DNA of 64,000 bases from Blasia pusilla (lineage: Eukaryota), in the NCBI GenBank assembly GCA_050084515.1, contig CM114271.1, positions 41,354,001 through 41,418,000 on the forward strand. Direction: 5' to 3'. Of the stretch, positions 21,173 through 52,900 are shown piece by piece (position 1 is the first letter of the stretch; every line of letters begins with the position of its first letter). The notes under the pieces were generated by a model. That model had not been told where the DNA came from and did not search any database. It worked only from the letters and a program-made list of their open reading frames with translations. Both the position numbers and the translations under genes were made by a program.

Positions 21173-21929
21173 CTCCGCTTCCTGCCTCTGGCAATCCAAT
21201 CCGGGCAGCGAAATCCTCTGTCGGCGCACCCGCAGGTTCCCGATCACACACTCCCGACAATTTTCCGCTCACCAATCCTTCAGACACCCTGTCCTTCTCC
21301 TGGACGCCTCTCCCTTCCGTCTCAGGAATCTTCTCCTCCCATCCTCGCTCTGCACAATTTTGAAGGTTCTGCGTGCCATGGCCCCTCCGCGAGCCTCGTG
21401 GCCCAATTCAAAGTCTCACAAACCTGCCGAAGCGGCTCGCAACACACTCTCTATCATTCCCCACTTCCCCCGGCTCTCACCAGCAATACGTCTCTACTCC
21501 TAGTCTCCTCCTCCTATGCTCTTTTCACACGCCCGCCACTGGTTTGCTTACGTGTGTTCGTCTGAACACAACTCAACCCCAGCCACCAGGCGATTCGAAA
21601 CTGTCAATTTACACCCGCGATGGTGATACGTGTCGTCACAGGAGAATGACACGCACGTTGCTCGCATTCAGAGTTGCATCCTATCGGCCCGGCTTGCGGG
21701 CTTTCAATTTCGAACAGAAATTCGCTTAAGCGGCTCCTGCAGATACATCCCTCTTTCGATGGCCCCTCGGTAATTTCGTAGGTCAATGGCCCCTGGCCGT
21801 GCCACGTAGGATCTGCAAACCGGCCACGGAGATCTTGATACCGAAATTCACCCCGACGCACTTGAATATACATCACCTTCCAAATGGATGGTTGTTAACG
21901 TAGAGTTCCGCTTATATGTAAATCCACTT

Positions 21930-24900: not shown

Positions 24901-26460
24901 ATAGGAATGCGAGTGTAGAGTCTAGGACGAGGAAGACCTGGATGGAAAGAGCGAAGGAGATCAATTTGGCTTAACCAAGTCCAAGTAGTTGTTGTGGGGA
25001 GTGCAGTAGGATGTGGTATTGGGTTAGGGATTGAAGGCCCATGCATGGATCGACAGTACCGCTGATGTCTTTTGATTCCATTAGGAGCAAACTCCTTACC
25101 ACAAGGTATGCAACGAACCTTTGGTACAAATGGAGAAGTAGAAGGGTAAGAAGGAGAGGAGGTGGGAGGTGCAAGAGGTGGTGATGGCCGACGATGAGGG
25201 GGTAAGTAGGTTGGGGAAGGAGGAGGAGGAAGAGGGGAGATTCGGGTAGAATAGATGGGAGTTGGAAGCAAGGGCATAGATGAGATATGTGGGGATGGCA
25301 AAGTAGAAGGATTCGGTAATAATGGATCAAGATTAGGCTCAATAGGACAAGGCAAAGAAGGGAGAAGAGGAGAATCCGGAAGAAAATTAGCGAGTGTAAT
25401 GGGTGTATTAGCATCTGGAGGAAAATGGCGAGATCTACGATGAGGAGGTGAACCAGGGGGAGAGGTTACGGCTGTAGGAGGGCGTGTAAAACCAGATAAG
25501 CGAGTAGATGGAGAATCCAAATCCATCTCTGATGACATAGAAATAAAGGTAGACAAGTCTTCGGAGACAAGAAAAGACATATGAAACGTGGTTTGGAGAA
25601 AGCATGAGGATAACGAGCAAAGCAAAAGTAGTGAAATCCGTCCAAAAGAAATTTCGATGGAGAGATGAAGATTAGGCAATACCGAATTTATGATTGAAAG
25701 TTACTATAAGAAAAATATAAAAAACAATTGAAAAGGAAAAGTGATGTATATGACATCGGAAGAGATGGCTCAAGAATATGAATTTCTAATGTCCTTAAGG
25801 AAATGGCAAACGTATGTAGGGGCGAAACAGTAAGGTAAGGAGTTGAAAGAGCAAGTAAGACTTTTGGGAGGAATTGACCTAAAACAAACCCGTACACAAA
25901 AATAGGCGCCTACAGAGAAGGAAGAAAAACTAGAAAAATTACTTGATATCAAAAGAACGAGCTCATCAAGACGATTGAAACAGGCCCAAACACGTCCAAA
26001 ACCGACATTCCAGAAGAAAGTTATGAAAGAAATTAGAAACACCAAAAAAGAGGATGTGAGGAGTAAGTGAGCCACCCACCAATGACCGCTATGAGGGAAT
26101 GAGTTCGTAATGTTGGGCCCAGCCCGTATCAAAAGATCCAAAAAAAGCAAGAGGAATCCCTTAAACCAATGGTAACCTGATATCACTCTAAAAGGAGAGC
26201 GCTATGTTTGAAATTGCATGTAGGAATCTATGAGCACATTTAGGAGAGAAGGAGGTCCAAAGATCCCAAGAACTTTGGAAAACTCAATCTTAAGTGGAAA
26301 AAAGAAGAACCCCAAGTTCAAACTTGAGAAGATGAACACATTGGGCCTCAGATTGAAAAGATTGGATCACCATGGAAATAGTTAGAAGCAAAATTCAAGA
26401 CGTCCCTCCATCTCCTCCGCCATAGTCCTCCTCCTCCATATCTCCTCCCAAACCCCCCAA
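21930..26460 (-). mobile_element. Near full-length CRE-clade non-LTR retrotransposon (Zn finger, RT, CCHC, restriction-like endonuclease), inactivated; ends approximate
   Basis: CIPCGKEF...HQRYC finger; RT motifs RPLAIGE, QFGV, DVANAFN, QGDPMG and IADD; CVCGDPIDAKGIHILRC; RLE RVDLV...GDVVIADP...KELSY...FIPFAI. One in-frame TGA at 23220-23222 separates the 819-aa and 302-aa ORFs, and there is a frameshift near 22330. Confidence 0.85.
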
Positions 26461-31538: not shown

Positions 31539-32811
31539 GTCCTCGTGACCTCGGCCTGATTTTAAGCGGAAACACTTATTAAAGACCAATGAATTTTGCT
31601 CTACTGTTCAGTGGGAACTTGCTTTGGTTGTCGTGACCCAAAGCGCATCCATGGGATAAAGCCCTAAGAGCAGGTCCCCATGGAGCAATGTACGATCAAC
31701 GGGTATCCTTCCAATGTACGATCAACGGGTATCATTTCACATACCACAGGTGGGTTTTTGGTCCTTGTGCTCTGTGAAATTTGCAACGCAGAAATCTCAG
31801 GGACAATCTTTGGGAAATAAAAGGACTATAGCCGCTCGTTAGTTTTAGCCCCATCACAACCAAGCGTCGAAAACTTGTAGAGCACGCCTGCGACACCCGG
31901 AGAAACTGGTTATGTCGTCGGACAAACCTATAGGACCATCAGCCTAGGCCCACTGGGAACTTCTGCCGCAGACTCCATGAGAACGGGCTATCAGACTAGA
32001 CGCACTGTTGACCTTGCACGCTCTTACCATGATTGGCGAGTGTATGCATGTGCGACGTATGCCTCGTGTGTGAGGCTGCTGCAACGGATACTGGGCCTCT
32101 GCATCCTTCACCATTCCTGCCCACAATGGTCGGATCAGTTCTCTGCTGAGTCCAGCCGGCACCTGCGATGGTACCACACGGCCCCAGGATGACAGAACGG
32201 GTAACAGGCTTCCACTTTTTGTACGCCGTTGGTTATCCGTCTTATAGTTCCAATGGGTCCTCAAATCTTTTATTCATACTTTTTATTATGTCCTCTGTTT
32301 CTTATTAATATCAAAACTGTTTAATCTGCCCTCTCACCAGCAAGCACCCGCTCAACTTTCTTATCATTTGCAACCACTTGCACCACCCAATCAGAGGAAC
32401 CTACAAAAATGGAGTGCATCAGTCTGTCCTTGTGATAGCTGACGGAAATCCAGACCTACGAGTTCGTATCTCGGAATGGTATTATACCCGGCTTTGAGAA
32501 ATAAGATCATCCTTCGGCAGAGAAAGAATGATTTGCTATGAGCTTTACATCACTCAGGGAAAAGTTCCCAACAGAATCTCTTAGATTTACAGGTATCTCT
32601 GCTGTGAGCAATTGCACCAATAAGCAAAGATAGCAATAGGCCTCCATGATGAAAAAATTCTCAACCTGCTTTTTCATGTAATGTTACTAAACTCTTGTGG
32701 TCCTAAAAGTATCACCATTATCTCCTGACCCATGGAGCTTCTACACGACTCAAACTTCCCCATGTTCGAAAACTAATTCTATCCAAATTCCTTGAACAGG
32801 TTCATACAGCC

Positions 32812-35387
32812 TCACTTAGCAATGACGTTGATTTTGACTGGAGCAATGACTTCAGGGTGAAGTTTGATCTCCACCGTATACTGTCCAATCTCTCGGATGT
32901 CTGGAATGGTAACAACTCTCTTGTCCACATCCCTACACAACCACCACAACCAGAAGTTACTTCAAAGTCTGTGAACCAGCACTCTGCAGACATATTCCGG
33001 TATAGTGAAATAAACAAAGTCCTTCCATCTTGCTTGAGAAGAGAAGCTTAATAATGTGTGGAGTGTCCTATATTTATACTACCATTGAAGTTTCTATAAT
33101 CTTAAACCTGATGGTAGTTGGCAACTCGACATCAGTAAAAGGTCACATAATCTGACTGCTAAGCACAAACACCACGTACCTTCCAGTCTGTGACTTGATG
33201 ATGTCCACAATATCTTGGGAAGTAACTCTGCATGGAACCACTCACACATACAGTCTGATTACTCTACCACATAGGGTTCAAATAGGGGTTAGCATTGCAT
33301 TTCTACTAATTTCTTGGGCAGACACAACACTCAATGAATAATCTCAATGGAAACTGCAAGATACAAAACCAACTCCAACTTTTCTTCTTCTTTCATTGAC
33401 TCTACCCAAGAAGGCACATCTGAGGTCCTTTTGATCCCTGTCAGCAGTATATTTCTAGGGAAAAGGTGATTAGTTTACGTACGAGCCAAAGATCTGCTTG
33501 CCCTGACCACCTCTCCGCCTAACATTGAAAAAACCAACAGCTTGAAATTGTCTTGCGATTAACTCAGCCTCCTCCTTCACCTGTTTGCCAACTTAAAATT
33601 TCAGTCTTGAACATTCTCAAGAGTAGCCCGCTCATTCTAGAACATGTGTGAATCCATAACATTGGAATATCTTCATCGAATACAGTAGAACAGTAGAATA
33701 ACGTATGCCTTGCCATCAAGGATTTAATGCAGTAAATAGACCGACATACCAGAGCTTCTCCAATATTTTACCTTTCTTTTCTCAGCTGCTATCTTCTCCT
33801 CCTGCTGTTTGATAGATCTGCACATCGTCAAACACAGTGTGAGCTGTGGACGGGGCACAAGTTACTAACACGACTGAACCTTTCCTGCATGTTTTCATCC
33901 AATTTGACCGGGAAAATCATGTGGAATTCAAACCTTGACATCCTGAATGAATGAGAGTATGCATGCTCCATGACCAACATGGTATACTGATAGTAAGTAA
34001 ATTCAGTTTGAACCCTTCACATAGTGGTATCTTCCTCTTGCAGTCTACCAGTTAACATCCCCTGACCGGAAATTATCATCATCATCAACTTACTTGAGCA
34101 GCTCTGCAGTGGCAATTTTTGCCTTTCCGTACGGATACAAGAAGTTCCGGAAATATCCCGTCTTAACTGATAAAAGCTCACCAGTCTTTCCCAATGCCGG
34201 AACATCTTCCGTCAAGACAATCTGTGGAAGAGAAAGTGACATCGACTATTATCGTGACATCTTGGTGTGTTTGAAATTCAGGTGACGTTAAGGCTGTCCC
34301 AGCCGGAACAATTCCATGCGACATTCAGTTAAGAGTACTGATAAAACGAGCCACAAAGGAGTATTCTAAGGGATCTTCAACTGAATCTATCTATCAGCGG
34401 ACAGTCCAAACAGCGGAGCCCTTGGACCTTGTCAGAATCGTAAAGACATTGCTCTATCCAGAACTTGTTTGTATTGTCCCTTCACTTCAATGCTGTGCTG
34501 TGTCCTTAAGGAACCGGGGAGGGTGATAGGGCTTAGGTGAAATGAACGTGGTTAAGGTACGCAAGGAGGATTGAGAGAAAAGCTACGGATGCAGTTCATG
34601 TGTAGCTTGCACGTACTACAAAATCACTCCATAGGCTTAACGCAACGCAGACTATACCTGACGTCTCTTTTGAACCTTCTTATCGGCCCTGATCAACGGT
34701 CTTTGAACCCTCCGCTCTTCGAGTGTGGGTGCAACTTTCACCTGATCAAATCACGCAAGTTTGCCACGAAATAAGCTCCTCACATCCCAGAACGTCAGCA
34801 CACCATGCATCCATTCTACTCGTTGAAAAGCCCCGCCCTGACAAACTCAATCAAGGGCGTTTGGAGGCTCATGGTATGGGCACCATAGCATCCCAAGCAT
34901 AATAGGACGAGGGTGTCAATGCTGCAGAGGCCCTTTGCTCAAGAATTTCCTCGTCCTCATTGCGTTGAAGATTCCAATCCCCATCCTGCTAACAAGAATA
35001 ATGCCGTCTCCATCCGCCACAACAGAAAAAATCAAGCAGCGGATTCATTTCATAAAGCGAATGGCAATGCCCAGTAATCTTCTACTCAAATTCGCTTCAG
35101 TTTCAGTCTTTTCAGCTGTCCTTCTCGACAATCAACTCTACAACTCACTTATTTCATTCCGCCAAAAACAGCTCCTTGCCGCAACAATGCGACCTAAACC
35201 AGGATAAATTCCCAACACCAATCGAATATCGAGGTAAATCAAGCACGGCAAACAAAGCAATAGCATGAGGGTCTGCATAGCCACGTACGGTCGCCTGCTG
35301 CTGCACGCGAAGACCTTCGAACGACGGAAGGAGACGCAGCGATGAGGTCGGAAAGGAGGCAGCCATGGTTGCATTGCAGTTCGCCAT
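32812..35387 (-). CDS. RPL9: Plastid 50S ribosomal protein L9 precursor; exons 35387(or 35366)-35289, 34741-34658, 34221-34094, 33817-33772, 33580-33483, 33227-33180, 32932-32812; 200-207 aa
   Basis: Spliced product includes [34 protein letters not shown] (L9 N-domain), [17 protein letters not shown] and [17 protein letters not shown] (C-domain). All six introns are GT-AG with compatible phases. Confidence 0.95.
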
Positions 35388-35929
35388 CGCTGAACCCAAC
35401 TCTATTTCCCTTGCCCTTATCCGGACAAAACTCGCTCTCCGTCTCAACTTCAGCTCTACGAGTGCCCGCCCCCAACACTTCCGTGCATTCCTTATCCACA
35501 ACCGATTACCTTATTGCAAAGTAGATATGCGCCGATGTCTGGTGACTCTGGTCTCCCTGAATCTGTCTCAAACTCATGTACTAGTGTACAACCGCATTCA
35601 AAACAAGGACTAAGGTCACCTAAGTAAAACATGGTATACTGTAGCCGTGATATAATACCAACAAAGTTAGTATGATTATAAAATTCAATTCGGTATATTC
35701 TAAATTCTTGTTATTCATATATCATATGCTTATGTATATACATGTCCTATACATAGGGCATGTAGTTGCTCTTGTCCGACTGAATCTTCTATAAGAGTCA
35801 TTGATGTTAGTGCTCTCTAATCATATTATATGTGGTCATTCATTTTTTATTATTTACATATTAAGAATATGAATATCTTTCATATCAATAAATACATCAT
35901 GTACAAAATTCAAGTCTAGTCTCGAGCCT

Positions 35930-38620
35930 CATTTCCTTCATGAAGTCTTTCTAGGGGGCCCTTTTGGCTCTCTATTCCCACCATGGGCGATCACTAGCTA
36001 GAGGAGAAGGTGGTGGTTTTGGAGGTTGCCACCAACACTTTTCATGGTGATCCCTAGGTGGTGCTCTTTTTTCTATGTCTCAATATCAAATGGTTCTCTC
36101 TATCGTGGATTTAGTTTAGGGCTGCATTTTCCAATTACTGGCAGATGATATGTATACTGTTAGCTTTCGAGATCTTGTTGTTCTTGCACTCTAATTATTT
36201 ACTGCTTAGTTAGCATACGTTGGTCTAGCGGTGAAGGTGGGAAAGTGCAAGGCATAGTCTCCATCATGCCTACCCGATGATGTTCATTTACCCGACGGAT
36301 TCATGACACATGTTCAAGGTCTACACGTCTTGGGAGTCCCATTTAAGAGTTATGACTTTGTCTTGATTTTTGTGGCATCGGCGCTTATCGAGGATCTACT
36401 CCATATTGATGACCTCATGAGAATCGTGATCCTTAAATTACTTTTGACATTCTCTCCTCTTGTTTTTTCGGACAACCAAATTGTCGCACTAGAATTGTAC
36501 GGATGTCTAGTCACCTCTCTACCCTCTTTAGATCATTTAATAGGAAGATCCTACAAGTTTTGGGGATTTATTACAACCCGATTGCTTAGAGTTTCCTATG
36601 GGAGGAGCTAGCTCATCGACCAACTTCTTGGCAGATTGCCTTTGGCGGTGTAGATCTTCTCTCGACTCAATTAGTGCCCCCCTCGACTTTTTAAGGGAGT
36701 GTGGCCATCTGGAGCATCCCTTCTTTGCTCCAGATTCCTCAATTGTAAGGGATAGACCACTCCTCCTACACTACATATCCTAGGTTGATGACAGCTCCTT
36801 CCCACTATAGTCTTCCCTCAGAGCATGCATAGATTCCCTTCTACTTAAAACCAAAGTCGTTCTCCCCACTTTCTCCTCCTAAGTTACCTCTAGCCAATCT
36901 AAGCTCCAATCTTCTTTGATGGAAACCAACTTTGAGGCAAGTTTTAGAGGCACTCTATGTGATGGGGATATTTCCATGGAAGTTCAAGCCTATATTTGCT
37001 CTTGCTCCGGGAATAAGGTTGCACATAAACTAACTTGTTTGTCCATGGGATGGACATTCCCAAGGGGTCCCTTGCCCAAGTTTCTTTGGTACCATGAGCG
37101 CATGTGTAGGCTTTGGACGCAAGAACAAGTGCAGGAAGGGATTGAACGGGTGTGCATCCACAAACCCTTGCTAGGCCCAGATGAAGCCCATGCATGGCCC
37201 AGATTGAGTGCCCAGGCCTTGGATTTGCCCTCTACGGGCTCTGGGGCGTGTCATGTGCCTACTCTCCTTGAACGTAATCTTGTTTGTTGCGGAAGCGTGC
37301 GTTCAATACGTCACGCTCTCAACGCTGATCTGCATCCAAACAGGCACTTTGGTTAGTCGGGTCTTGGATCAATCAGAAGGCTAACTTTCCGAGTTCTCAT
37401 CTCAGACTCTCATCAAGCTCAACCTTCCTAGTTTCGCGGTTTACAACACGGGCAAGTCTCGAAAGACTTCAGACAGACTTTCTGGTCGGTTCAGGAACCT
37501 GAAACGGCGTTTCGCACCTGGCGGTTCCAACTGTACGATGGACATCCAATGAGTTCCTCACCAAGACTCGTACTAAGTGAATCTGGGGTTGGAATCCAAG
37601 TGTGGCGTACAAAGTCCACTCCCTTGGATCAGGTTTGGGCTTCGAGTTCCAATGCCAAACTCCCGTTCCATCCCGTGCCTCTGAAACGTCGTCTGGCGCC
37701 CAAAGCGGGATTCGTGTTCCGAGACATCTCGGAGAGACTCCTCCCTTACTAGTACTTCTGGGAATCTCTGGGGGGCCCCTACATTTAGGGAAAGACACCC
37801 GGGCCTCTCCAACTGGCCCTCAACCCAATTGCTCTCACATTCGTTTTCGGCCAATATCTCAGCCTGTACTTATGCGTTTGCTGAGATCTTTGGTGCGTTG
37901 GAAGCGTCTCAAGATAAGATTTCCAACACGCCCTTACTTGTCCCAAACTCATCTTGGATCTCAACGTTATGGTCATAAACACGGTCAGATTCTCCCAAAC
38001 GCTAGTAGTGTTCCAAATTGGTTCTCACCTCTTTGGCAACCAACCTCCCAAGACTCAACTCATCTCAAGTCTTTGCTTGCGTTTGATCTAGGTTTCCTGG
38101 TCGTGACCACTAACACATGAAACGCACAACTCTGTTCCGCGTTTCGTCTCTTCGACTTTTTCAAGATACCTTTCCAAACGCCTCTCCAAAGCGCAAACCT
38201 CGCAGCGTGAGTTCACTTGAGTTCTGATGTTTCGCTTGGCACCTATTTGGTGTTGTTTGGTTATGAGGGTCACGACACTTGGGTCCTTGTGTGAAACCTG
38301 GAGCCTGCATTGTACGGACCTACCATGGGCTTAGTGCTAGTCTTCACAGGCTTGTTGTGGGCTACAAAACGGTGGTGGCAAGAACAAGTGACGGAGCGCT
38401 AGATTGGGTGCGAGCTAGTCAAGCCTGGGTCTACGTTGTGGGCTCGAAACCTTGGGCCCGCATGGACATAAGCCCACAAACATGAACTTTGTTCGTGTGC
38501 AACCTTGTCTAGAAAGGGGTAGTTCATAGATGGAGGTTTACCTGCTCATCTCACCTTTCTATATCGCACCACTTACCTACACCACAACAATGTGGTTCCG
38601 ATTGGGCTTCACCATTGATG
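35930..38620 (+). mobile_element. Heavily decayed CRE-clade RT fragment interrupted by a nested insertion at ~37043-38520
   Basis: HGDP-LGGALF, ADD and GLHVLGVPF are collinear with the 22-26 kb element; weak CRE-like sequence appears to resume at ~38520. Confidence 0.65.
37043..38520. mobile_element. Non-autonomous element (family shared with 58351-58912) containing a ~1-kb possible solo LTR at 37249-38277
   Basis: Left end CCATGGGATGGACAT.CCCAA.GGGTCCC and right part ACAAACATGAAC...GTGTGCAACCTTG are shared with the 58.4-58.9 kb element. The inner segment is bounded by TGTCATG...CACGACA without a clear TSD. Confidence 0.45.
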
Positions 38621-38989
38621 GTTGGATGGCTATTAAGGCGGGCTCAGATAGTGGAAGATGTTACCACTAGAGGCCCTCTTAGCAACAATCATGTTTCTTT
38701 AGGCATAGGTAAATGATTCCTTGGCGTCTCAATTCCCTAAGTCCCCCTTTTTTGTACTTTTGATGGATTCCCTCATCACCCTTTATGCAAGCCTTATTTT
38801 ACTATAAATTCCTCCTTTATTGAAAATTAAAATATTTCCCTCTTCTCCTTTGTTGAAACATTATCCCTTCTTCCCCTCCTCTATTTAAAATTCCCTATCT
38901 CTTCTTTACTCTCATACTTGGAAATCATACCCCTATAATAATAGAGCCCACGCGCGCTTTCGTGGGATTGGAAAACTTCTATTAATGAT

Positions 38990-41040
38990 ATCTCAAAGGA
39001 TACGATGTGATTGCAAAGCCCCTAATCTTGTTCACCAAGGTGGATCATGAGTTACACAAGGGAAATGAGCAATAGAAAGCATTTCAACTCCTCGAGGAGA
39101 TATTAACACTGACAATTATCTTGAGAAGATCTATCAAGGGGTGTCATTTCTAGCCGTGCATAAATTGGAGTTTGTTGGGTTTGGGTATAGTGCTTACCTA
39201 GCATGACAATGAAGGTAGAGGGTTCACGATAGCTTGTGCTTGTCGCTCAAATAATGATGCAAAGGAAAAGTACATCTTGTATGAAAGTGAGTACTTAGCT
39301 ATAGTGTGGGCTATCACGCATTTCAAGTGTTATTTATTCGGTAACCCTTTCACCCTTACCACTAATCACCAAGTACTTAAGAGATTGATGAAGTCAGACA
39401 AGCTTGTATAGAAGCTTGCTAAGTGGGCTCTATTATTATAGGGGAATAATTTCCAAGTAGTTCATGGACTTGGAAGACTAAACCAAGATACGTAGATGAG
39501 TTGAGTTGTAACCCATGCTTGGTCAACGAGATACAAGTGTAGCTCATTGGCATGGTGCCTTGCTGGCACCCATATGCTTATTTGGGTTTAATTTTTGGCT
39601 ATGGATAGCCATATTGTGGTGAATTTGATGGTAGGGTTAGATGGCAAGTAATTAGATCCAAAGGCTGGTGAGAAGGCGACAAGTAGCAGAGATATCCACG
39701 AGGATGGGGTATTTTTGGAGTATGTAGGCATTGACAACGTTGTGAGCAAAATGGGTACTAGAGAGGGTGACCTACAACAAGCCAAATGGTTTATGTGGGA
39801 GGGGACACATGTTTTACGAGTTTAGGAAGATGGTAGAGTACAAGTGGTCCCTCATCCTTCGTAGAGAGCATGATTGGTGCAACATGTCCACAAGGAGTTT
39901 GAACACTTTGGAATGGACAAATAACTTGCTTGAAGTATATTATTGGTCATGAAATATACATACAAATGTACAAAAATTTATTGTCAAATTCATGGTGTGT
40001 GATTGGATCCCCAAATGTTTCAATACCCTGACTCCATAGTTGCATTCACTATTGATCATGGATTTCAAATTTTGCAGGGCCTTTGTACTTTATAGAGTAT
40101 TATAGTCATTGTGTGTTGGTGATGGTGGAGTACTTCTTGAAGTGGATAGAGTTGGTTGCATTCCCGAAAAAAGTGAGTAAGGGAGTAGTGTATGCACTCT
40201 TAGACCGAGTGCTCAATCAATATGGCGTACTAGCAACGACTTAACAAATCAATGTATAGGTGCAAGCATGTTCTCGATGAGCTGAGACATTTGAGAGAAT
40301 CATGGATATGGATTTTGAGAACTTGGCTATTGCACAACATCTAGACACATTCACGTGTATGTTTCATGTCTTCCTACAATAGACGACATCTATAAGGTTG
40401 GATGTTACAATATGGCTCACCATCTTGAGATTGTGTGAGGTATTGCCATCTAGTGTTCTCTTATTGGAGGGACGTGATGGTATGGTTTGGAAGGATTCTG
40501 TGCATAACTACGCACGATGTCACTTTCTTAATATTGATGGGGCAATGGACCCGAGATTAGCAATAGTATATGCATGTTTATGTTTTATGTTGTATGGATC
40601 TACGAGGGATACAACCATTATGCTAGTTTGTGATTGATGTTCGAGACGAAGATACATGGCACGTTTGACACCACCTCCCACTTGGGTTTCTCATGGACGA
40701 TGGTTATGTCCTAGATGTATATAAAGTAGGTACTTTGTGATCATAGATCTAGACTTGCAATAGTGATATGGATGATAAGAAGGTGACTAATTATGGGGTT
40801 ATATGAGCACTTGGTCTTTTTCTCTAGCATCGTTGATTTTTCTATCATGGTAGGTAAGTTTAGATGACTATCTGGAATTAGAGGGACCTAACCACCAACT
40901 AGGGGAATGATTGGAGATATTTTGGTATATGATTGACTACGTTTGTAGATGTAATGAGTGAGTATTATATCTTGTCTTTATGTATGTGTGGGTGATGATA
41001 ACAATGTATATTGTTTAGAGATGTGCATGTGCACGATAAG
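38990..41040 (+). mobile_element. Decayed Ty3/Gypsy pol remnant (RT end, RNase H, integrase, PHD) with partial LTR
   Basis: YESEYLAIVWAITHFKCYLFGNPF (RNase H), VMVEYFLKWIELV (integrase) and TIMLVCD*CSR...WLCPRC (PHD), with many stops. Confidence 0.85.
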
Positions 41041-42305
41041 TTAGTTAGCATAAAAGTCCAATTCAAAACTTTTCAAGTTCGATTACCATTGCCGAAAACT
41101 TTCTTTGGAGAATTTCTTATCATCTTTCGACCTCCATCCCTGTATAGCTCACTAGAAATATCCAATCCAAAAGAAAATTGAAATGACTTTCTTGCCATGG
41201 AAATTTTTTCTCAAAATCATCTATCGTATAATCTATACTATTATTGAAGATACTCATCTTGCGTTTAAATATCCCACACGTCAACACACGATATTTTTTC
41301 TCAATATAATTTTGCCTCCTATTACCATTTGGTACCTTTAATTCGAATTGACACTCCATTATCACGACCAATATCACACATGCATCCCCAAATTTCCCCC
41401 TTCATTGCATGGGCATCGAATGTTTCAATCTTGAAACATTCGTTTATCAATAAAAAAATCATTCATATTAAATGTCATCAAAATTGCCTACCATGAGGGA
41501 TATCGGCGGGCTTGAATCCTATGGCCACTCAACATACTATCACGATCACATGAAGGTCCCAAGAAACAATATATGCATTGTGATTGAGAAATCATTATCA
41601 GTGGAAGTAGTCCAAAAGACAATGAATTTGATTTGGAATACTAGTTTCCAAGGGTCACAAAACTAAGTTCTATGCCTCGGCCAAAATTGTTGGCGGAAAT
41701 CCAGTGGTCACGAGGATACCACTATTTGAGCTCGATCCCATAAGTAGACAAACACACTACAACGACCCTCATTTCTACGTCTGAAATAGATTACCAATAG
41801 ATAATATGACAAAACACACTGGTCCCGGATAATTACTTCCCATCATAACCAAGTCGAGATCGCCAAGATGTTAGACCAATTCTACACCCAAAATTTTTTA
41901 GGGCAGACAAATCGGCAACCCTCTATGGTCGCTTGTTTATGTGTGCATGAGATTACACACTTTGAGGTGCGCATGGGATCCACCCTTAATTTACATCATT
42001 AAAAGAGAGAATGAGAAAGGGAGAATGAGGTTAGAGGAAACCCTCCTCTACTTGTGGTGTTGGATACATGTCATTTTAAGAGAGGGAATTCACTTAAGAG
42101 AAGACAATAAAAAATAAAAACCAGAAGCTTTTTAAAATTTGAATATCATCCATGTTATACAAGGGCACAAACTAGGGAGAAAAAAAATCTATTGTTAAAA
42201 TGTGGTTAAAACCCAATCATGGCATGGTCATGAAATTAAAATTATTAATTAAGTATATTAATAAATCGAGTCACCGCAATGCCAGTCCCGGCTGAGGAAG
42301 CAGGC

Positions 42306-42313
42306 TACGTGGC
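42306..42313 (+). promoter_or_regulatory. G-box/ABRE-like element TACGTGGC upstream of OHP2
   Basis: Motif lies ~290 bp upstream of the ATG, just before a pyrimidine-rich tract; the same octamer is upstream of HCF152 (21801-21808, minus). Confidence 0.4.
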
Positions 42314-42593
42314 GTCACGCTCAGGCTCACATCTCTCATCCTCCTTGTTCGCCTCCCGTCCATTCCTCTCCTAGTCCTAAACCCTCCGTCCTTGGAACGG
42401 GTCCTGCCTTCCCTTTCCTTTCCTTTCCCTTCCCTTGTTTCGACACTTTAGGGTCGAAACAACTTGTACCAGACGGATAAGAAAGAACTTGGGAGGGACA
42501 GATCCTTGGAAAGGGTAGGTCCTTTCCCTACCCTTCCCCTGTGTCGTCCCTTCTCGCGTGAGACAGATAAGCAAGAACTTGGGAGCTTTGGCG

Positions 42594-45500
42594 ATGGCAA
42601 TCTCCGTCACCATGGCTGTCTCAGCTCCCACATCGTCGCTGCATCTTCTTCCGTCTTTCGAAGGCCTTCGCGCTCCTCGGCGTGCGTCTGTGAGTGCATC
42701 ATTCTTGTTTTTCAGATTCCATTTCAGCGTACTAATTGTGCTTGCAATTCTTGGTTCTCCGAGAAAGTGACGAAGTGGAGGTGTAGGGACTTTGTGTTCA
42801 TGTCATTCCGCTTTCAGTGGCCCCATTCCGAATTCATTCTAGCAGTCGGAGTGTATTGGAGTACTGGAATCTCTCGTTTTTCCCACTCTCGTATCAACAG
42901 CGCAGTTGGCTTCTGATTCTGGATCTCCGAGGAACTACAGACTTTGGGACTGATTTGTGGTTGGTTTTCTTGGTCAGGTGAAAGCTTTGGCTGTACCTGC
43001 AGATAGTAGCATTCATCGACCACTGATCGTAGCTGTCCAAGAGCCTATCGCCAGTACCACTACCTCCTCTCCTCCTCCAGCTTCGTCCAGCACTAGCAAG
43101 TCCGGGGGCGTCACTATCGAGTACCAGCGACAAAGGGCGAAGGAGATGCAAGAATATTTTAAGGACAAGAAGTACGACGAGGAAATCTTTAAAAGTAGAC
43201 TCTTCGGCTGGACTCGGAAGAACGAGGTCACAAATGGCAGGTGAGATTTGCTTGTCGAGATGGATATGTGATGTGGCTCAGACATTTGGTAAAAGTAGAT
43301 GGGGAAGAAATGTGAGTAAGGTGGAAGAAAGGTCAGTAGTATTGACCAGACACATTGCGCTATTTTGGGATGGGAGCGTCTTCGTTCGTGACCAGTCATG
43401 TCAATGTTTGCTCATCACGGGCTTGCTAAACGCAAATTTTTCTCTATCTGTTTCCACCAAACCTTAGCGTTATAGACACAATCCCAGATTTGGAACCCTT
43501 AGTTCTCTCCATTCTATCTTTCTACTTGGCATGCGCTGTCACCTCTTCTGCTCTGTTACTAGCTTTGAATTCGATTACGGATTCGGAATCCTACTTCCTT
43601 ACATTCCACCATTTTATCTGGGATGCCATTCGACCTTTTCTCTAATTGATTGCTGACTTCGAATTAGATCCCGGCATGTCCCTTCCCAGCTTTTGGGTGA
43701 TTGATTCCACGTTTTATGTTGGTTGAAAATCCACATCCTACAAGTCGTGATATGTAGGTGTGTGTTGATGTTATTTGCAGCAAGTCACTTGTTGCGCTCG
43801 ACATTTTGAATCGAGTTTTTTGACAGACATCTGTAAAGACAATTAATATGCACATATTGCGCTAAACTCTCGTAAGTCCGTACCATTCACGATTTGGATT
43901 TTCTAAGATAAATTGCTAGGGTTATGCACTGTTGCATTCCCTTTCCAGTATTCAACCTGATTTAGATCTTGATCACTGCTTTAGGGAATAATCATTTCCC
44001 CACCTGTCAATGTAGCTCATTTTGGGAAGGAAGGGACAGGATGTGATTGAACTTGTTTCAAGTTTACGGTAAGCATGTAATCTCAGGGGAGCCCTTCCAT
44101 GTGTGTCCCTTGGGATCGCATCCGATGTGATCTCTCATCAGATCTCAAGCTTCTAGGCTCGGACTCTCAATGAATGAGAGGTTTTTAGGGGTGAAGGCCC
44201 TGGATCTCCATCCTGTCATCTGGGAGTATAGGCAAAGTTCACACTCTGTGTAGCATGGTTCGTCCATGCTCTAGGTAGGTGATATCACTTGCAGGCTCGG
44301 GCAACCCTTGACTGTCAGTACCAGGTATTGAGCTGCCAACTTACTTCTCAGGAAAGTAGGAGAAAGTTAGGCAGTACCATGTAGTGCTGCTGGAGAGATC
44401 AATGAATCGAAACATTCAAAGATACTTACGGCACACTGGTTGGACGTTGCTGAATGTTTTGTGTAAAGATTAATCTATTACCTTGGTTGTTCGGAGACAG
44501 GAATTGCCCTGAGGTAGGTCGTGAACTTCTGGTTCAGGAAACACATTTAGTAGAGAAATGTCGGGTTGTGCTTTTTTTAATACTGTATTTCTTCAAGATT
44601 TCTTCTGCTGCTCTGGTTACTGCATTCACATTAGAGGTCTCCCACAATCAGTCGTAGGAACTACACCGAAAGAGTCTCCTGGATATTTTCATCCCCAAAC
44701 TTGTCTCTTGGACGGGTCCCTTTGTCATGTGGTCTCCATCAACAGCTTTGGTTGGGGATCTAAAGGTATTCCCTAAAGTTGCCTCTGCAACTCACGTTTT
44801 GGCTACAGGACGCCTGTCATCCAGTGGCTCCACTCCACTGCAAATTCAAATGCACACCTGCCTTAGGCACACCCGGAACGAAGCTGACATCATACTACAC
44901 TGTATAAGAGACTCTACTCACAGTAGCAGAGCATCTCATTGCCTTGCAAACATAGACCTATAGAGCGCGAGAGAATTTTCTCATGCACCAATGCTCTGCC
45001 TTAGCTAAGAACCGACAATTGTGTCCTCCTATGACAGGATCTAGATTGGATGGATATTGCACTTCCGCCGCAACCATATGTCTTCAATTTCAGGAGACAG
45101 GATGCACTGGGTTGGGGATGTAGGATTAAGCAACGAATTTTATGTACACACATTCTTCAGACCCACTCATTGTTCATGAGGCACTTCTTCCCTTGAGAGA
45201 CACTGGGGATTGAATTCCTTCCCGCCAGCAAGAGAGGAGCTCGCAAATTTATCATTATGATGAGATAGCATGATGTAGGGGACCCAACAAGGTCTTGGGA
45301 TTGAGAGACTGAGCGACTGAGCAACTGAGCTACTTGGTGAACAGTGTCTGTCTTGGCCTTGTGACTATAGATCAACCATGAGAGGCAGGCAGAAAGAGAT
45401 GCTGCATTCGCTTATGACATTCTACTCTTTATGACACCGCATTACCCTGTTCATGTATCACTGAAATGTCGTCACCTGGTTGATGGTACAGGTGGACTAT

Positions 45501-45606
45501 GTTTGGAATTGCCGTTGGCTTGTTAACCGAGTATGCGACGGGATCCGACTTTATTGAACAACTCAAAATCATTGTATCCAATTTGGGCATTGCAGAAGTG
45601 GACTAA
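42594..45606 (+). CDS. OHP2: One-helix protein 2 (LHC-like family), chloroplast precursor; exons 42594(or 42612)-42689, 42978-43240, 45492-45606
   Basis: VTIEYQRQRAKEMQEYFK...FGWTRKNEVTNGR|WTMFGIAVGLLTEYATGSDFIEQLKIIVSNLGIAEVD*: LHC motif ExxNGRW plus the OHP2-specific C-terminus. GT-AG introns of phase 0 and 2. Confidence 0.95.
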
Positions 45607-45959
45607 ATCTTGTCTTTCCGAACAGCAAAGCTGTGTATACAATGTAGCTTAACCACATTCACCTCTGGAATAGAGACTGTTTGGCCGAATTTTTAGACAA
45701 CTTATCAGGTGATCTGAAGAATCTTTGAATTAAACAGCTATGGGTTCAATTTTTGTATGTAAATCTGAAAACCGTGATCAAGGCCAATGAATGAAGTTTC
45801 AATCATACTTTTAGGATTATTCAGAAATAGTTTTGTCCACCTATGGCACCCTGCATATGTGAGACTTGTACCATCCACAGTGGCTTCTGTATTTTAACCA
45901 GCTGAGCAATTTAAAAAGTCGGTTGTGTTCCATGGAAAAGGTCCTTGTAATTGTGCCAT

Positions 45960-48400
45960 CACTTTGTCCCAACTATGAGTTGTGGATTTTCGCTCTTAGA
46001 GCCAAATGCCTAGATAATGTTGCTCCTTGATTGCAGCCTTGTATATCTTGTGAATTTCAATCTCAAGGGTATACAGGTGGGAGACTGACTCCAAGAGTGG
46101 GGAGGGAATACCAAGGCCACATCTGGCCTGGGGGAAAGGGAGCTACCTAAAGGAACATGACCACCAGCAAAAAGGCCTCTTCGAATCATGTTTCCACATT
46201 TTGAGCCTGCCTCCGAAATCCAACTAAAGAGTACCTTGGGAAGCGATGAATCCATTGTCTACAAAGTGACAACGCACAAGTTGAGGACAATTCACTTCTA
46301 GAGCGCCAAACCTCTCCCTCATCATTCCATACATCTCTGTCGGTAGTGTGAGGTACTTACGTTATGTATGATGATCAAAAAGATGAGCCATAATTTTCTT
46401 TGTGGAGTCTCTCTAATGTCACCACGTGTGTGCCTGAATAGACTCATAGGATTTGTGATTGTGACATCGTTCACCACAAACTCAGCTTCCCACGTCATTG
46501 AAAGTTTAGCTTGAATAAGAATGGTGCATGGAATAGCATTAGGCCTTTAGCATGTGAAAGTTTGTACCTTGCACTACCTTGTGAGTGGCAATCCTATCAT
46601 CCCCCAATTGGACATTGCGTTAAATGCAAACCAAGAGAATCTATACAATCACAAATATGTCGAGCCAATAGTGGGCAAGAGGAATGCCTATGGGCTAGTG
46701 TGCCCAAGGGACTCTCAAAGGAGCCCAACTCTGCAAGATATTCGATCATTCGTAGGATCCTCCTAACAAATATCTAAAGAGGGTATGGAGGTAGTTAATA
46801 TCCACTCAATTTTAGTAAGATGATCAAGGTGTGTAGCTAAACAAATAGAGAAGATGACCAACTCACCTATCACCAATCCTCATGTGGTCATCAATATGAA
46901 GCACATCCTTCATAAGTGTTGTAACTCTAAAGCTCAAAACAAAGTTTGGCTTCCAAGTGGAACCCATAAGACGTGCAAACCTCCATTAGTTGTCATAAAT
47001 CCGTCACGTATATGAAGGTCAAAGGATAGTCGCGATGGAGATCATCCCTTATACGTCCCAACCTTCACTGTTAGGACAATACATGCCAATTGGGTAATAA
47101 GTGGTGGAATTTAGGGACAATGAGATCTCCTAAACCAATAATACGCATATCATGAGCCAATGAGGGGAAAATGCAACTTGAAAACGCCTCCACCATAAGT
47201 ACAGTCAATAACATACTACTAAGCCAAGGCAAAAAGAGCACCATCCATGTGATCACCTTGACGGGTATTGTTGGCAAATTCTAAAATTGTTCTCAACATT
47301 CACTCGATGAACAACCCACTCTAGATACAACCCAATGCGAGAGTCTTACAGCCAGTTGGGATGACTCTCCAAATTAATGCAAACATTAGTGTGACTAGAA
47401 GTCCTCATGAAAATTATAGAGCAAAAGTTCAATTTGCCAACCTTAGGAGAAGCTTACCAATGGCAATTAAAAGAATCCCTCCATCCTTCTTAGTCTACAC
47501 CAAGAGTCACTCCACCACCAACATTTGGACTACTATTTCCGGAATTCTCCCCTCAACTAGGTCAAAAGCAACTTGGAGTAGCTCACAAAAAGCCATTAGT
47601 GGAATCCTTTGGAGGGAAGCAATCTTGAAGGTATTTAATTTGTACATCATGCGTGACAAACCTCTAGAAGCAATCCACATAGTACGCCCAAATGATCATG
47701 CAAAGAGCAATTAGTCAAGTCCAACAACCTTCCCAAAATGGAAGTCACATACAAGAGTGAGGATATCAATCACTACCTCAGAATATAGCCTTCGGAGGGC
47801 GTTGATAGCATCAACCGTTGGAAGCGCAACATCCATAGGGTAAAGAGTGCACGCAACTCGCAAGAACTTGCAAGCACGTCATAGTGTTCTACAACATTGC
47901 AACCTGGTTGCTACAAGGTCATACAAAAGGAAAACCAAGTGAAATGCTCCCAATGACGTAAGCCAAAAACTTGCTTTGAAGAGACTCCCAATCACCTCCA
48001 CGAGAATGCCTCAATAATGCCAAACCTTGATATGGTCGGCCTTCCCTCTTTAAGTCTAATAGATATATCAACCTAAAAGAAGAAGTAGTAGATACCATGA
48101 GAGCTCATCCATAAGGTCAAGTACGATCCTAGCTAGGGGTAGGAGGAAAGAATAATGGAGGTCATGCCCTCATGCCATGGCGGATGGCAAGTGAGATCCC
48201 TTGGAATAACCTCGGGAAGGGAAAACATGTCTTGAAGAGACCCATGCTACTTTTGAGGTGAGATCTCCCATGACTCAAGAGGGCATGGGGTTGCGATTGA
48301 AGGACATCCATGGTCGATTAGGAGAATCATCCATCCAAATATATTAAAGACGAGATGTTGAGATACTAAGTAATTTTGGACTAAACTGCAAAAGAAAGAT
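45960..48400 (-). mobile_element. Third, strongly decayed CRE-clade non-LTR copy
   Basis: KKDGGILLIAIGKLLLRL, TRQGDHMDGALFALA and AFSSCIFPSLAHDMRIIG are collinear with the RT of the 22-26 kb element. Confidence 0.75.
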
Positions 48401-49984: not shown

Positions 49985-52900
49985 TCACATGTCTATCTCA
50001 ATGTCAAACCAAACCCACTCTCCTAATGAGAGGCAAGGGATCATAACTCCACCGCCTCGTCCTGAGAGGTTCAACAAAGAGAGGATGAGCTCTCAAGCTC
50101 TCTCTCTCTCCTTGAGGTATATCCCTCCCCTCTCCCAAGCTCTATCCATGGTAACCTATGCTCCCAAGTCACTTCCTTGGCTCTTGACCTGATGTAGGAG
50201 GTCAAGGGTCACTTCCCAAAATAGAAAGTTGACCATAAATTTGAAATTGTACTTACCCAAAATAGTAAGTTTCTCATTTCGGCTCATTTGAGCCAAAACG
50301 AAGAGGAAACCTATTCTCTTAGGTTTCCTGGGGCCTCGGAAGGTCATCCTCAACCTCTTGAGCTTTTCCTACACTGATCGCAAAGGCGCTCTACTAGATC
50401 TTACCGATCTATCCTAAAATACGTGACAACTATTGTGCGCATACACATCGCTACACAATATACATCGTTGTCATCGAACACACACATAAACATGCACGAT
50501 CCCATGCTAACTCATGGTACCCAAACATAGAGGCGAGAAGTACCAAAATATCTCCAATCGCCCCCCTAGCTGGTGGTTAGGTCCCTCTTACTCTAGATAG
50601 TCATCTATCCCTACCTACTATGACACACATCTTTAGGACGCTAAGAGCAAAAAGGTCATGTGCTCATGTGGCCCCATCGTTGGTAGCCTTCTTGTCGTTC
50701 ATGTCACAGACACAAGTCGGAATCTAGAACTACCTACTCTTTATACATGTGGGACACATCCATGGTCCCTGAGGAACCCTAGTGAGAGGTGGCGTCAAAC
50801 ATGTCATATGTCATCCTCTCGAACACCCATCACAGACTAACATAGTGGCTGCATCACGGGCGGAACCACAAAATATACATCGTAAGCCTACATGAACTAC
50901 TGCTAATCTCGGATCAACTATACCATCAATGTTCAGAAGATGACGTAGCGCACACTTACGCACATGGTCCTTCCAAACCATACCATTGCGTCCCTCCAAT
51001 AAGAGAACACCATATTGCAAAATCTCACGCACTCTCAAGATAGTACACCCTCCCATGAGTCACATCCAACATTGTGGGTGCCATCTGCTGCAAGTCGACA
51101 TAGTCTCATTGATGAAATCTTTGGATAGTAGGTCGATAACCACCTCCCCGAATAGTTGCATACCTCAACTTATCCCGATGTTGCGCAGTCGCCAAGTTCT
51201 CAAACGTCATGGGCATCAATCTCCGAAATAACTCAGCCCTCTAAGAACATGCTCGCATCCATACATTAGGGTCATTAAGGTTCAACACCTCACCAACATC
51301 TCGACAAATGGCCACAAGCAAATCTAGCTCTCGGCCATAAAGTAGCAAGTACGGTGAGAAAGACGCTAAAGATACCTTCCTACTAAATCTGTATCCCATC
51401 GCCAACCATGGAAACTGGAGGTCCCAATCTCCTAGGTGACCTCTCTGCAAGTCATACTTGCTTAATCCTCTCTTCACCGTCTGCACAACCCTCTCCGCTA
51501 GTCCATCCGCCTCACGATGATCTCGCAAAGTGGTGCGGTGGTCGATCAATGCCTAATCATACAAGACCTAAAACTCCCCGCGAAACTCTGTACCTTGGTC
51601 TATCAACACCTTAGCTGGTGCGCCGTAATGACTCAGCACTCGATCTAGGAAGGCATATGCTACTCCCTCACTCGCTTTGTCAGGCAATACAACCAACTCT
51701 ATCCACTTTGAGAAGTGCTCAACCATCACCAACACATAATGACTATGGCGCTTCGTCAAAGGCAAAGGTCATGCAAACTCCATCTATAACCTAAATCCAT
51801 GATCGGAAGTGGATGCAATCGAGGAGTCCGAGCATTGAACGATGCTCACACCCGATCACACACCATGCATCTGGCAACAAACTTTCGAACGTCAGTCTCC
51901 ATGCCTCGCCACCAATACTGTATTTGGAGCAAGTTGTACGTCCGCTTCACTCCAAAATGACCCAACTCCTCATGGGCATGACGCACCAAACGTGCTCTCT
52001 GTGAAGTATGACGCACTACACATACTCTACCATCCTCCCAAACGTGCAACACATGTGTCCCTTCCCACTAGAACCGTCTGGCTCGCTGTTGGATCCGATC
52101 CCGCTCTCTAGCACCCACTGTGCTCGGCGCGCTGCCAGTACGCAGGTACTCCAAGACCACTCCATCGTCGTGAATATCTCGGCCACATGTTGTCTCCTCA
52201 CCGGCCTCTGGATCTAAGGACTCTCCATCCGATCTCACCATTGAAGTCTCAACAATTTGGCTCTCCATAACCAAAATAGGCTAACGGATGTCATCCTAGC
52301 ACCAACTCCTCATTACTCTCTCCATGCCAACGAGCTCCAATCGCATCTCTTTGACTCGACCATGGGTTACGGCTCAAACCATTTGGATCATGGTTAAGCA
52401 TCCCAGATCTATGCACCATCTGGTAATCATACTCCTGCAACAAAAGAGCCCACCTTGCAAGCTTCCCTATAAGCTTTTCGGACTCCATGAACCACTGAAA
52501 TGGCTGATGATCAATAATGATGGTAAAAGGATTCACAAATAGATAACACCTGAAATGTGCGACAGCCCATACCGCAACCAAGCACTCACCCTCATCCAAG
52601 CTATACTTCACCTTTGCAGCGCTTTTAGAGCGACTAGCATAAGCCACCACAAACTCTCTACCATCATCGTCATGCTGGGTGAGCACGGCTCCAAGCCCCA
52701 AAATGCTCCAATCGGTATGCAATTGGAAAGGACACCCCATGATCGATCACCTCAATATGGGCGTATATGTCAATCTGTCCTTGAGCAGCTGAAATGCTCT
52801 CTCTTGCTCATCCCCCTAATGCCACTTCTGATCCACCTTGGTCAGCAAGGTCAACGGCTTCGCAATCAAAGTGAAACCCTTGATATACTATCAAGGAAGA

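Follow-up and report, generated by a model that had tools for sequence, protein, structure and literature searches.

How the address labels that direct proteins to organelles arise and change in nuclear genes is a standing question in plastid evolution. To our knowledge, most documented cases come from flowering plants and concern genes newly moved from the organelle genome. A described example is rpl32, which in Populus and other Malpighiales took the presequence of the chloroplast Cu-Zn superoxide dismutase gene SOD1 (Cusack and Wolfe; Ueda et al.; both as related in the available part of PMC8018952). Exon shuffling is regarded as one general way in which targeting signals for organelles arise (Long et al. 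1996, for mitochondrial cytochrome c1; Vibranovski et al. 2006; via the available part of PMC7456531), and the same part of that source describes an FGLK-type element in transit peptides such as those of preferredoxin and the Rubisco small subunit. Here we analyzed a stretch of 64,000 nucleotides (nt) from Blasia pusilla (assembly GCA_050084515.1, contig CM114271.1, positions 41,354,001 to 41,418,000 of the forward strand), hereafter called the window, in which positions are counted from the first letter. In the window RPL9, the gene for the plastid ribosomal protein bL9 (minus strand), and an OHP2-type gene (plus strand) lie head-to-head with a separation of 7.2 kb, and the two genes share an N-terminal presequence module. 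An earlier note, made from the letters alone, had claimed that one of the genes acquired its 5' untranslated region (5'UTR) and its plastid import signal by an inverted duplication of the neighbour's 5' end. We consider it likely that a module native to RPL9 was copied in front of OHP2 and there replaced an older presequence.

Results

Significant similarity between the two proteins is limited to the presequence. A repeat search of positions 34000-44000 returned as its longest inverted pair the arms 35282-35369 and 42609-42696 (88 nt, 75% complementary), which match each other across the spacer. Counted from the second in-frame ATG (ATG2), exon 1 has 26 codons in both RPL9 and OHP2, with identity at 18/26 residues and 58/78 bases. 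For codons 1-20 the identity is 17/20 residues and 49/60 bases, and seven of the 11 differences are synonymous; these figures of the earlier note were obtained again by codon comparison. With the register fixed by the splice site, none of 100000 shuffles gave exon 1 identities as high as those observed. In the same fixed register the first 19 codons of exon 2, one of which exon starts reads VKALAVPADSSIHRPLIVA, align without gaps as claimed earlier, agreeing at 7/19 residues (reached by 46/100000 shuffles) and 33/57 bases (0/100000). The module accordingly spans the first 51-52 residues of both proteins, i.e. exon 1 and the first 19 codons of exon 2, and the identity over it is 25/45 from ATG2 (our own count, on the exon peptides) or 28/51 from ATG1. 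The likeness stops at RPLIRA in RPL9 and at RPLIVA in OHP2. Beyond this point the mature parts are unrelated, with Pfam L9 domains in one protein vs. an LHC-type helix in the other, as the earlier note had maintained. Both copies contain P-S-F-E-G-L-R, and in a six-frame translation of the 64-kb window the pattern F-x-G-L-[RK] was found at these two sites only.

The two genes also agree in intron 1, which in both is of phase 0 and lies at the same codon. This was borne out by raw RNA sequencing (RNA-seq) reads from three runs of the same species label, which were mapped to positions 32500-46000, and the acceptor junctions read as quoted in the earlier note. At the degenerate residues shared by the two copies, 13/24 codons are identical vs. 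6.9 expected from the codon usage of both genes, and at least 13 identical codons were reached in 637 of 100000 simulations. Because of this excess of identical codons, together with the same intron position, common descent is favored over convergence, and within these genes and the relatives examined the data support a module that is homologous by descent and not merely alike in composition. Between the copies the synonymous divergence (dS) is ~0.82 and the nonsynonymous divergence (dN) ~0.32. The resulting dN/dS of about 0.3-0.45 is consistent with moderate purifying selection, in line with what had been suggested for the copy.

RPL9 exon 1 (35289..35410, minus strand) contains a short 5'UTR, ATG1 at 35387, ATG2 at 35366 and 33 codons from ATG1, and is followed by GT. 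Intron 1 (34742..35288, minus; 547 nt, GT..AG, phase 0) is spliced in the RNA-seq data, where the joint 34741/35289 was covered by 101+4, 80+2 and 105+3 reads in the three runs (mapped as 34739 to 35287, cut +2; the counts 101, 80 and 105 are first-mate-on-plus reads, the main orientation). Exon 2 (34658..34741, minus) has 28 codons; the shared part is 34685-34741, ending RPLIRA, and the tail DKKVQKRRQ belongs to L9 only and lies outside the module. Exons 3-7 (34094-34221, 33772-33817, 33483-33580, 33180-33227 and 32812-32932 with the stop, all minus and with RNA-seq joints) encode the bacterial-type L9 domains, with Ribosomal_L9_N (PF01281, 65 bits, cut-off 20.7) in exon 3 and Ribosomal_L9_C (PF03948, 40.1 bits, cut-off 23.2) in the last exon. 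The L9_N match opens at the start of exon 3, so that exons 1-2 encode an N-terminal extension only, of ~60 residues. In the RNA-seq model the gene has seven exons with all joints in frame, and the spliced translation is colinear with 206-aa liverwort bL9 proteins, with identity at 133-135/154 residues of mature L9 to the bL9 proteins of Marchantia, Riccia and Calypogeia. At the level of sequence these matches confirm RPL9 as a plastid-type bL9, and the extension may direct import into the plastid. Upstream of ATG1, RPL9 reads of run X6 accumulate with their 5' ends at 35410 (15 of depth 49), and the read ends begin ~6 nt after the gene's own GATAAG. A minor alternative joint with an acceptor inside intron 1 (34984-35288, minus) was also seen, in two reads of run X6 and three of run X7.

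The OHP2 promoter and 5' leader (42389..42593, plus strand) include a ~100-bp tandem duplication (42389-42495 and 42503-42585), detected as the direct-repeat families D1-D3. Each tandem unit has a CT-rich tract and then AGAC.GATAAG.AAGAACTTGGGAG (25 nt, 92% identical, 90 nt apart), and one contig of run X1 extends upstream as far as 42488, which is 7 nt past the leader's first GATAAG. The coding part of exon 1 (42594..42689, plus) has ATG1 at 42594, ATG2 at 42612 and 32 codons from ATG1, followed by GT. Intron 1 (42690..42977, plus; 288 nt, GT..AG, phase 0) is supported by the joint 42689/42978 with 10+143, 2+81 and 5+195 reads in the three runs (main orientation 143, 81 and 195). The first exons are consequently in use in the transcripts of both genes, as the abundant exon 1-exon 2 joints in all three runs show. 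Exon 2 (42978..43240, plus) consists of the shared part (42978-43034, 19 codons, ending RPLIVA) and an OHP2-specific mature N-terminal region. Intron 2 (43241-45491, plus) interrupts the gene at the NGR/W position, as in Sphagnum-like loci, and exon 3 (45492..45606, plus; joint 43237 to 45489, cut +3) encodes the LHC-type membrane helix, the C-terminus and the stop. The RNA-seq model has three exons in frame and gives a protein of 157 residues, and read ends place the 3' ends of the mRNA near 45931-45935. The extra upstream ATG in GCGATGGC context that was pointed out earlier is present in RPL9 as well as in OHP2. Since 'MA..(x)TMA' is conserved in relatives, the first ATG is suggested to be coding.

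The closest named relative of the OHP2-type protein is P0001, a 155-aa 'hypothetical protein' of Marchantia paleacea that is identical at 72/80 residues from TIEYQ on. Searched against the PDB, P0001 matched both PsbS helices (E 7.6e-9) and many LHC chains with residues about 102-144, and its score against Pfam Chloroa_b-bind (21 bits) is just below the cut-off of 22.3. On account of these helix matches and the near cut-off score we assign the plus-strand gene, from its sequence, to the LHC superfamily's one-helix proteins, OHP2 type. OHP2 exon 2 alone had no match in the PDB. The nearest ESM Atlas cluster, 'high light inducible protein' (0.86), is a lead only, and the 12 relatives of the protein that were found all lack a gene name or are called 'hypothetical'. 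The name OHP2, and with it a putative orthology to the OHP2 of Arabidopsis or Chlamydomonas and not to OHP1 or another one-helix protein, stems from the earlier note and was returned by no database match. In the sequence one can see a long region at the N-terminus and a hydrophobic stretch at the C-terminus, features described for OHP2 in the available part of bioRxiv 10.1101/2022.08.29.505686. According to the same part of that report, OHP2 acts together with OHP1 and HCF244 in chlorophyll delivery to nascent D1.

The distribution of the module among relatives differs between the two genes. For OHP2 a module of ~50 residues was found in M. paleacea, M. polymorpha, Riccia sorocarpa and R. fluitans, i.e. 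in 4/4 named Marchantia-like species found, and over five species the module alignment is almost gap-free. Outside the Marchantia-like group the OHP2 proteins lack it by eye in 7/7 cases (P0005 and P0007-P0012, a set that holds Calypogeia fissa as annotated, two Sphagnum species and P0007-P0010), with P0006/P0021 as the exception described below; in phmmer comparisons five of these seven all gave <=2 bits. RPL9, on the other hand, has the module in 5/5 liverworts examined, including Calypogeia, where 20-24 of 50-51 residues are identical to the Marchantia-like RPL9 modules. Sphagnum RPL9 has only the stretch LLPTFQGLR in common. Because the module is in RPL9 of all liverworts examined and missing from OHP2 outside the Marchantia-like group, we read this distribution to mean that RPL9 was the donor and OHP2 the recipient, a polarity that the earlier note had left to a comparison across relatives.

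The moss-type OHP2 loci give a view of the gene lacking the module. In the Sphagnum-like loci L016 and L023, residues 1 to ~187 are encoded by a single exon with no presequence intron, and these two loci as well as L001 have two exons and a single intron at NGR/W. This intron is old, since it coincides in position and phase with intron 2 of liverwort OHP2. Moss OHP2 and the other relatives have unrelated presequences of their own, which argues that OHP2 swapped an older presequence and did not gain its first one. The earlier claim of an acquired import signal therefore stands as far as a module moved to OHP2, and has to be amended from a first gain to a replacement.

Linkage of the two genes, which the earlier note had proposed to test, differs from species to species. 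RPL9 and OHP2 are adjacent in the window and appear close in Calypogeia fissa, where two assemblies each have them on one contig, with accession numbers that differ by 5 and 6 (a proxy, on the assumption that the order of accessions is that of the genes). In Riccia sorocarpa one contig carries both, at a distance of ~1550 locus tags, and in M. paleacea they are on different contigs. Close linkage of the two genes is thus not universal.

A different arrangement is seen in the transcripts P0006 and P0021, represented by six contigs in two variants, in which an RPL9-like N-terminus is joined to a complete OHP2. The OHP2 part keeps the older VIRCSKAEGPLRRPS region, as in mosses. Over 64 residues the RPL9-like part has 63% identity to Calypogeia RPL9, and it continues into mature L9 (KKVQ..., ...LGKTG; ~25 residues), lacking the conserved IVL of L9. 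The P0006 module clusters with Calypogeia RPL9, to which it is identical at 35/54 residues vs. 15-18 of 44-46 for the Marchantia/Riccia OHP2 modules. The organism of these transcripts is leafy-liverwort-like. A metagenome scan with P0006 gave 63 loci (453 kb), which all match the OHP2 part only (residue 77 on), and residues 1-76 had no match, so that the genomic locus was not found among them. Neither an RPL9-like module nor an L9 gene was found in the flanks of these 63 loci (best tblastn 26.6 bits, E 0.01).

The duplication is old and reaches beyond the B. pusilla genome, since dS is ~0.8 and the module is also in OHP2 of Marchantia and Riccia. Recent gene conversion between the inverted copies was considered as well and is ruled out by the same dS. 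In mature L9 the window species is about equally distant from Marchantia (135/154 identical residues) and Calypogeia (133/154), and in OHP2 it is nearer to Marchantia (72/80) than to Calypogeia (61/80). It is probably one of the Marchantia-like liverworts, placed outside the group of Marchantia and Riccia. Identities between modules are 44-69% among Marchantia-like paralogues and orthologues when the Marchantia/Riccia same-gene pairs are left out, and in a tree of the ~50 residues the sole supported clade is Marchantia plus Riccia OHP2 (bootstrap 89).

The intergenic spacer (35411..42388) has almost no RNA-seq cover and contains a decayed retrotransposon fragment. Read depth was 0 to ~1 in all bins of 35657-42421, hence there is no expressed gene between RPL9 and OHP2 in these samples. 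The fragment is an RT_RNaseH remnant (39280-39408, plus; Pfam 40.6 bits), and the other five of the six open reading frame pieces tested in the spacer had no Pfam match. The spacer had been described as ~7 kb of mostly transposon debris; the length and the presence of a retroelement fragment agree with our data, and 'mostly' is plausible and in part borne out by the Pfam matches. Just upstream of the RT_RNaseH fragment is a 37-nt inverted repeat (38915-38951 and 39423-39459, 95% complementary, arms 471 nt apart), possibly the ends of a small foldback element or one resembling a miniature inverted-repeat transposable element.

In all RNA-seq reads and in the X1 contig fixed differences from the window were seen at 43088 and ~40 other places. 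The change at 43088 (C>G, synonymous, OHP2 exon 2) is present in 194/194, 124/124 and 207/207 reads of the main orientation. As all reads differ from the window at fixed positions, the sequenced plants are of another strain than the assembly, or the assembly has errors. Elsewhere in the window, 18415-20625 (minus) holds an open frame of 737 residues for a pentatricopeptide-repeat protein (PPR_2, 291 bits) with a possible first exon near 20876-21268. The stretches 23223-25700, 52294-52746 and 14350-14754 (all minus) hold retroelement remains, namely a reverse transcriptase frame (RVT_1, 52 bits, open frame of 826 residues) and an RT_RNaseH frame (106 bits), and in addition a zf-C17orf113 zinc-finger frame (34.5 bits).

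Discussion

We propose that the module originally belonged to RPL9, the plastid bL9 gene. The Marchantia-like liverworts would have had an ancestor in which the 5' end of RPL9 was copied at the genomic level together with its intron, and this copy would have landed before a nearby OHP2-type gene and become fused to it in frame, displacing the older presequence, and selection for import may have kept both copies of the module since. The module starts rich in Ser/Ala, contains the 'FGLK'-type element F-x-G-L-R and is basic in its middle part, and it would carry either precursor across the chloroplast envelope. Cleavage would probably occur after RPLI(R/V)A, where the likeness of the proteins ends. 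After import, L9 would then assemble into the 50S subunit, and the one-helix protein would enter the thylakoid by means of its own helix.

Several results weigh against this reading, or against its simplest form. The non-coding sequences of RPL9 and OHP2 are alike at chance level only, as the observed scores were reached by 36/300 shuffles for intron 1 vs. intron 1, by 28/300 for the 313 nt upstream of ATG1, by 572-997/1000 for the 30-60 nt before ATG1 and by 211/1000 for the last 30 nt of the introns. With non-coding flanks so dissimilar, we infer a copy at the DNA level from the coding sequence and the intron position only. The words GATAAG, CAAG and TTGGG, which the earlier note had listed as a likeness of the 5'UTRs, do occur in both 5' regions and carry no weight. 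What holds of the supposed acquisition of the neighbour's 5' end is hence the homologous import module, by its codons and intron, and a co-transfer of the 5'UTR is without statistical support. The two protein searches for other carriers of the module had too little power for queries of 32-40 residues. A library search by phmmer with OHP2 exon 1 (32 aa) at E <= 0.001 returned two internally repetitive proteins unrelated to plastid targeting and no plant protein, and as the window pair itself scores 28.5-29.1 bits, below that threshold, equally good matches could not be counted by this search. A word-indexed search with a 40-aa RPL9 exon 1 query, which ran seven codons into the intron, gave six candidates, all of them with E above 10; with a database as large as 5.8 billion, this result is uninformative. 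Furthermore, the 5' read ends of OHP2 crowd at 42606-42614, on ATG2 (30+23 of depth ~86 in run X5, 26+6 of ~98 in run X7). This pile may mark a second start site that leaves almost no leader and excludes ATG1, or it may be an artefact. Finally, the B. pusilla OHP2 module falls outside the Marchantia plus Riccia OHP2 clade (bootstrap 46), and because it does not group with its orthologues, a single clean event is left in doubt.

This last point leads to the possibility that OHP2 received the module from RPL9 on more than one occasion, or that neighbouring copies were homogenized by gene conversion, so that the copies in B. pusilla, in Marchantia/Riccia and in P0006 have no single origin. In phmmer comparisons B. 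pusilla OHP2 exon 1 was indeed nearer to four RPL9 proteins (35.0, 33.0, 29.2 and 28.5 bits) than to the four Marchantia/Riccia OHP2 proteins (22.0, 17.7, 15.2 and 9.1 bits), although a faster change of the Marchantia/Riccia OHP2 presequence alone could yield the same scores. Quartets of B. pusilla with M. paleacea, M. polymorpha or R. sorocarpa had no sites that group by gene, 1-2 that group by species and 1-3 'cross' sites, as compared to three sites by gene and none by species in the Marchantia-Riccia quartet. Both B. pusilla copies have the E of FEGLR and also RPLI; in place of these, D and another stretch stand in both copies of Marchantia. Such signals come from an alignment of ~50 residues only, with relevant bootstraps of 34-56, and dS excludes a recent conversion. 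The closeness of the P0006 module to Calypogeia RPL9 points in the same direction as the quartets, but P0006 may be a conjoined transcript and not a gene. From these 50 residues a single capture with unequal later rates, repeated capture and old gene conversion cannot be separated, as they would fit alike; all told, we regard repeated or continuing exchange as unlikely.

The fusion transcripts could also be taken to suggest that the two genes were once one, with a single promoter and set of transit-peptide exons that gave two products by alternative splicing, until a duplication was followed by loss of the alternate exons and left the genes as the neighbours seen here. The P0006/P0021 mRNAs open with RPL9 exons and end as OHP2, in both variants, and the missing IVL sits at the junction of RPL9 exons 2 and 3 (KRRQ/IVLT), where an alternative acceptor could explain the gap. 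The linkage in Calypogeia and B. pusilla would fit such an origin, and the chimeric SOD1-RPL32 gene, later duplicated, offers a precedent (available part of PMC8018952). Nevertheless, the head-to-head orientation makes read-through impossible in B. pusilla, no RNA-seq joint connects RPL9 with OHP2, and in Calypogeia the two are separated by four or five other accessions. In addition, the RPL9-like part of P0006 is substituted at otherwise conserved L9 positions, as in a decaying copy, and genomic DNA for its first 76 residues was missing among the metagenome loci. An alternatively spliced common gene is therefore improbable in our view. Convergence, i.e. that a typical liverwort stromal transit peptide with a serine-rich start, F-x-G-L-R and a V/I-x-A cleavage motif evolved independently in both genes, we consider more improbable still. 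Transit peptides are compositionally alike, and the FGLK motif occurs in unrelated precursors (available part of PMC7456531). The LLPTFQGLR of Sphagnum RPL9 and the dissimilar flanks would agree with convergence. Convergence would, however, leave unexplained the excess of identical codons, the identical position and phase of an intron that is missing from moss OHP2, the nearly gap-free alignment in five species and the unrelated OHP2 presequences outside the group. The mature L9 residues that precede OHP2 in P0006 lie outside the reach of transit-peptide convergence altogether.

A broader version of these ideas is that RPL9 and OHP2 were coupled throughout liverwort history, with the module repeatedly moved or homogenized or with one alternatively spliced gene at the origin, and to this we would give a low probability. 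If true, three states of the coupling would be extant: adjacent inverted copies in B. pusilla, unlinked copies in Marchantia/Riccia and a fusion transcript in the leafy-liverwort-like lineage. It would also be a case of rare concerted evolution confined to the targeting exon of unrelated genes.

Transfer of the module from RPL9 to OHP2 with replacement of the older presequence, the reading we prefer, would place a presequence exchange in an early-diverging land-plant lineage, with donor and recipient side by side and the intron carried along. As OHP2 had a functional signal beforehand, transit peptides that work can be exchanged as well as newly gained. The locus is also a natural experiment in which one module would serve a ribosomal protein that is soluble in the stroma as well as a membrane protein of the thylakoid, and in relatives the older signal, its substitute and a possible fusion intermediate are at hand for comparison. 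Literature searches brought up no description of a presequence common to RPL9 and OHP2; one paper, PMC11585782, contains both gene names, each once, along with 'transit peptide', and the available part of PMC12531127 holds nothing bearing on the module.

As compared to the systems described above, the case is a fresh example of established transit-peptide exon shuffling. The FGLK-type element is loosely conserved, and P-S-F-E-G-L-R of both copies fits it. In contrast to the FGLK element, a short convergent motif of ~5 residues in the available part of PMC7456531, the match between RPL9 and OHP2 extends over ~50 residues and includes codons and intron position. With the exon shuffling cases in the same source it has in common that separate 5' targeting exons with a phase-0 intron border are found in non-homologous genes. 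It differs in that the module spans the intron, and the in-frame fusion point would lie inside exon 2 of the recipient and not at an exon border. In SOD1-rpl32 too, as far as the available part of PMC8018952 describes it, a plastid protein has the presequence of an unrelated plastid protein, which came from 5' exons of the donor that were duplicated or shuffled. There the similarity is limited to the transit peptide, in which ~50-60% of the residues are identical, a level near that of RPL9 and OHP2. In that system the recipient was a ribosomal protein gene fresh from the plastid genome and without a signal of its own, whereas RPL9, likewise a gene for a ribosomal protein, is the donor. The OHP2 recipient, by comparison with other bryophytes, had a working presequence, so that the event would be a replacement, and in B. 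pusilla donor and recipient are still neighbours.

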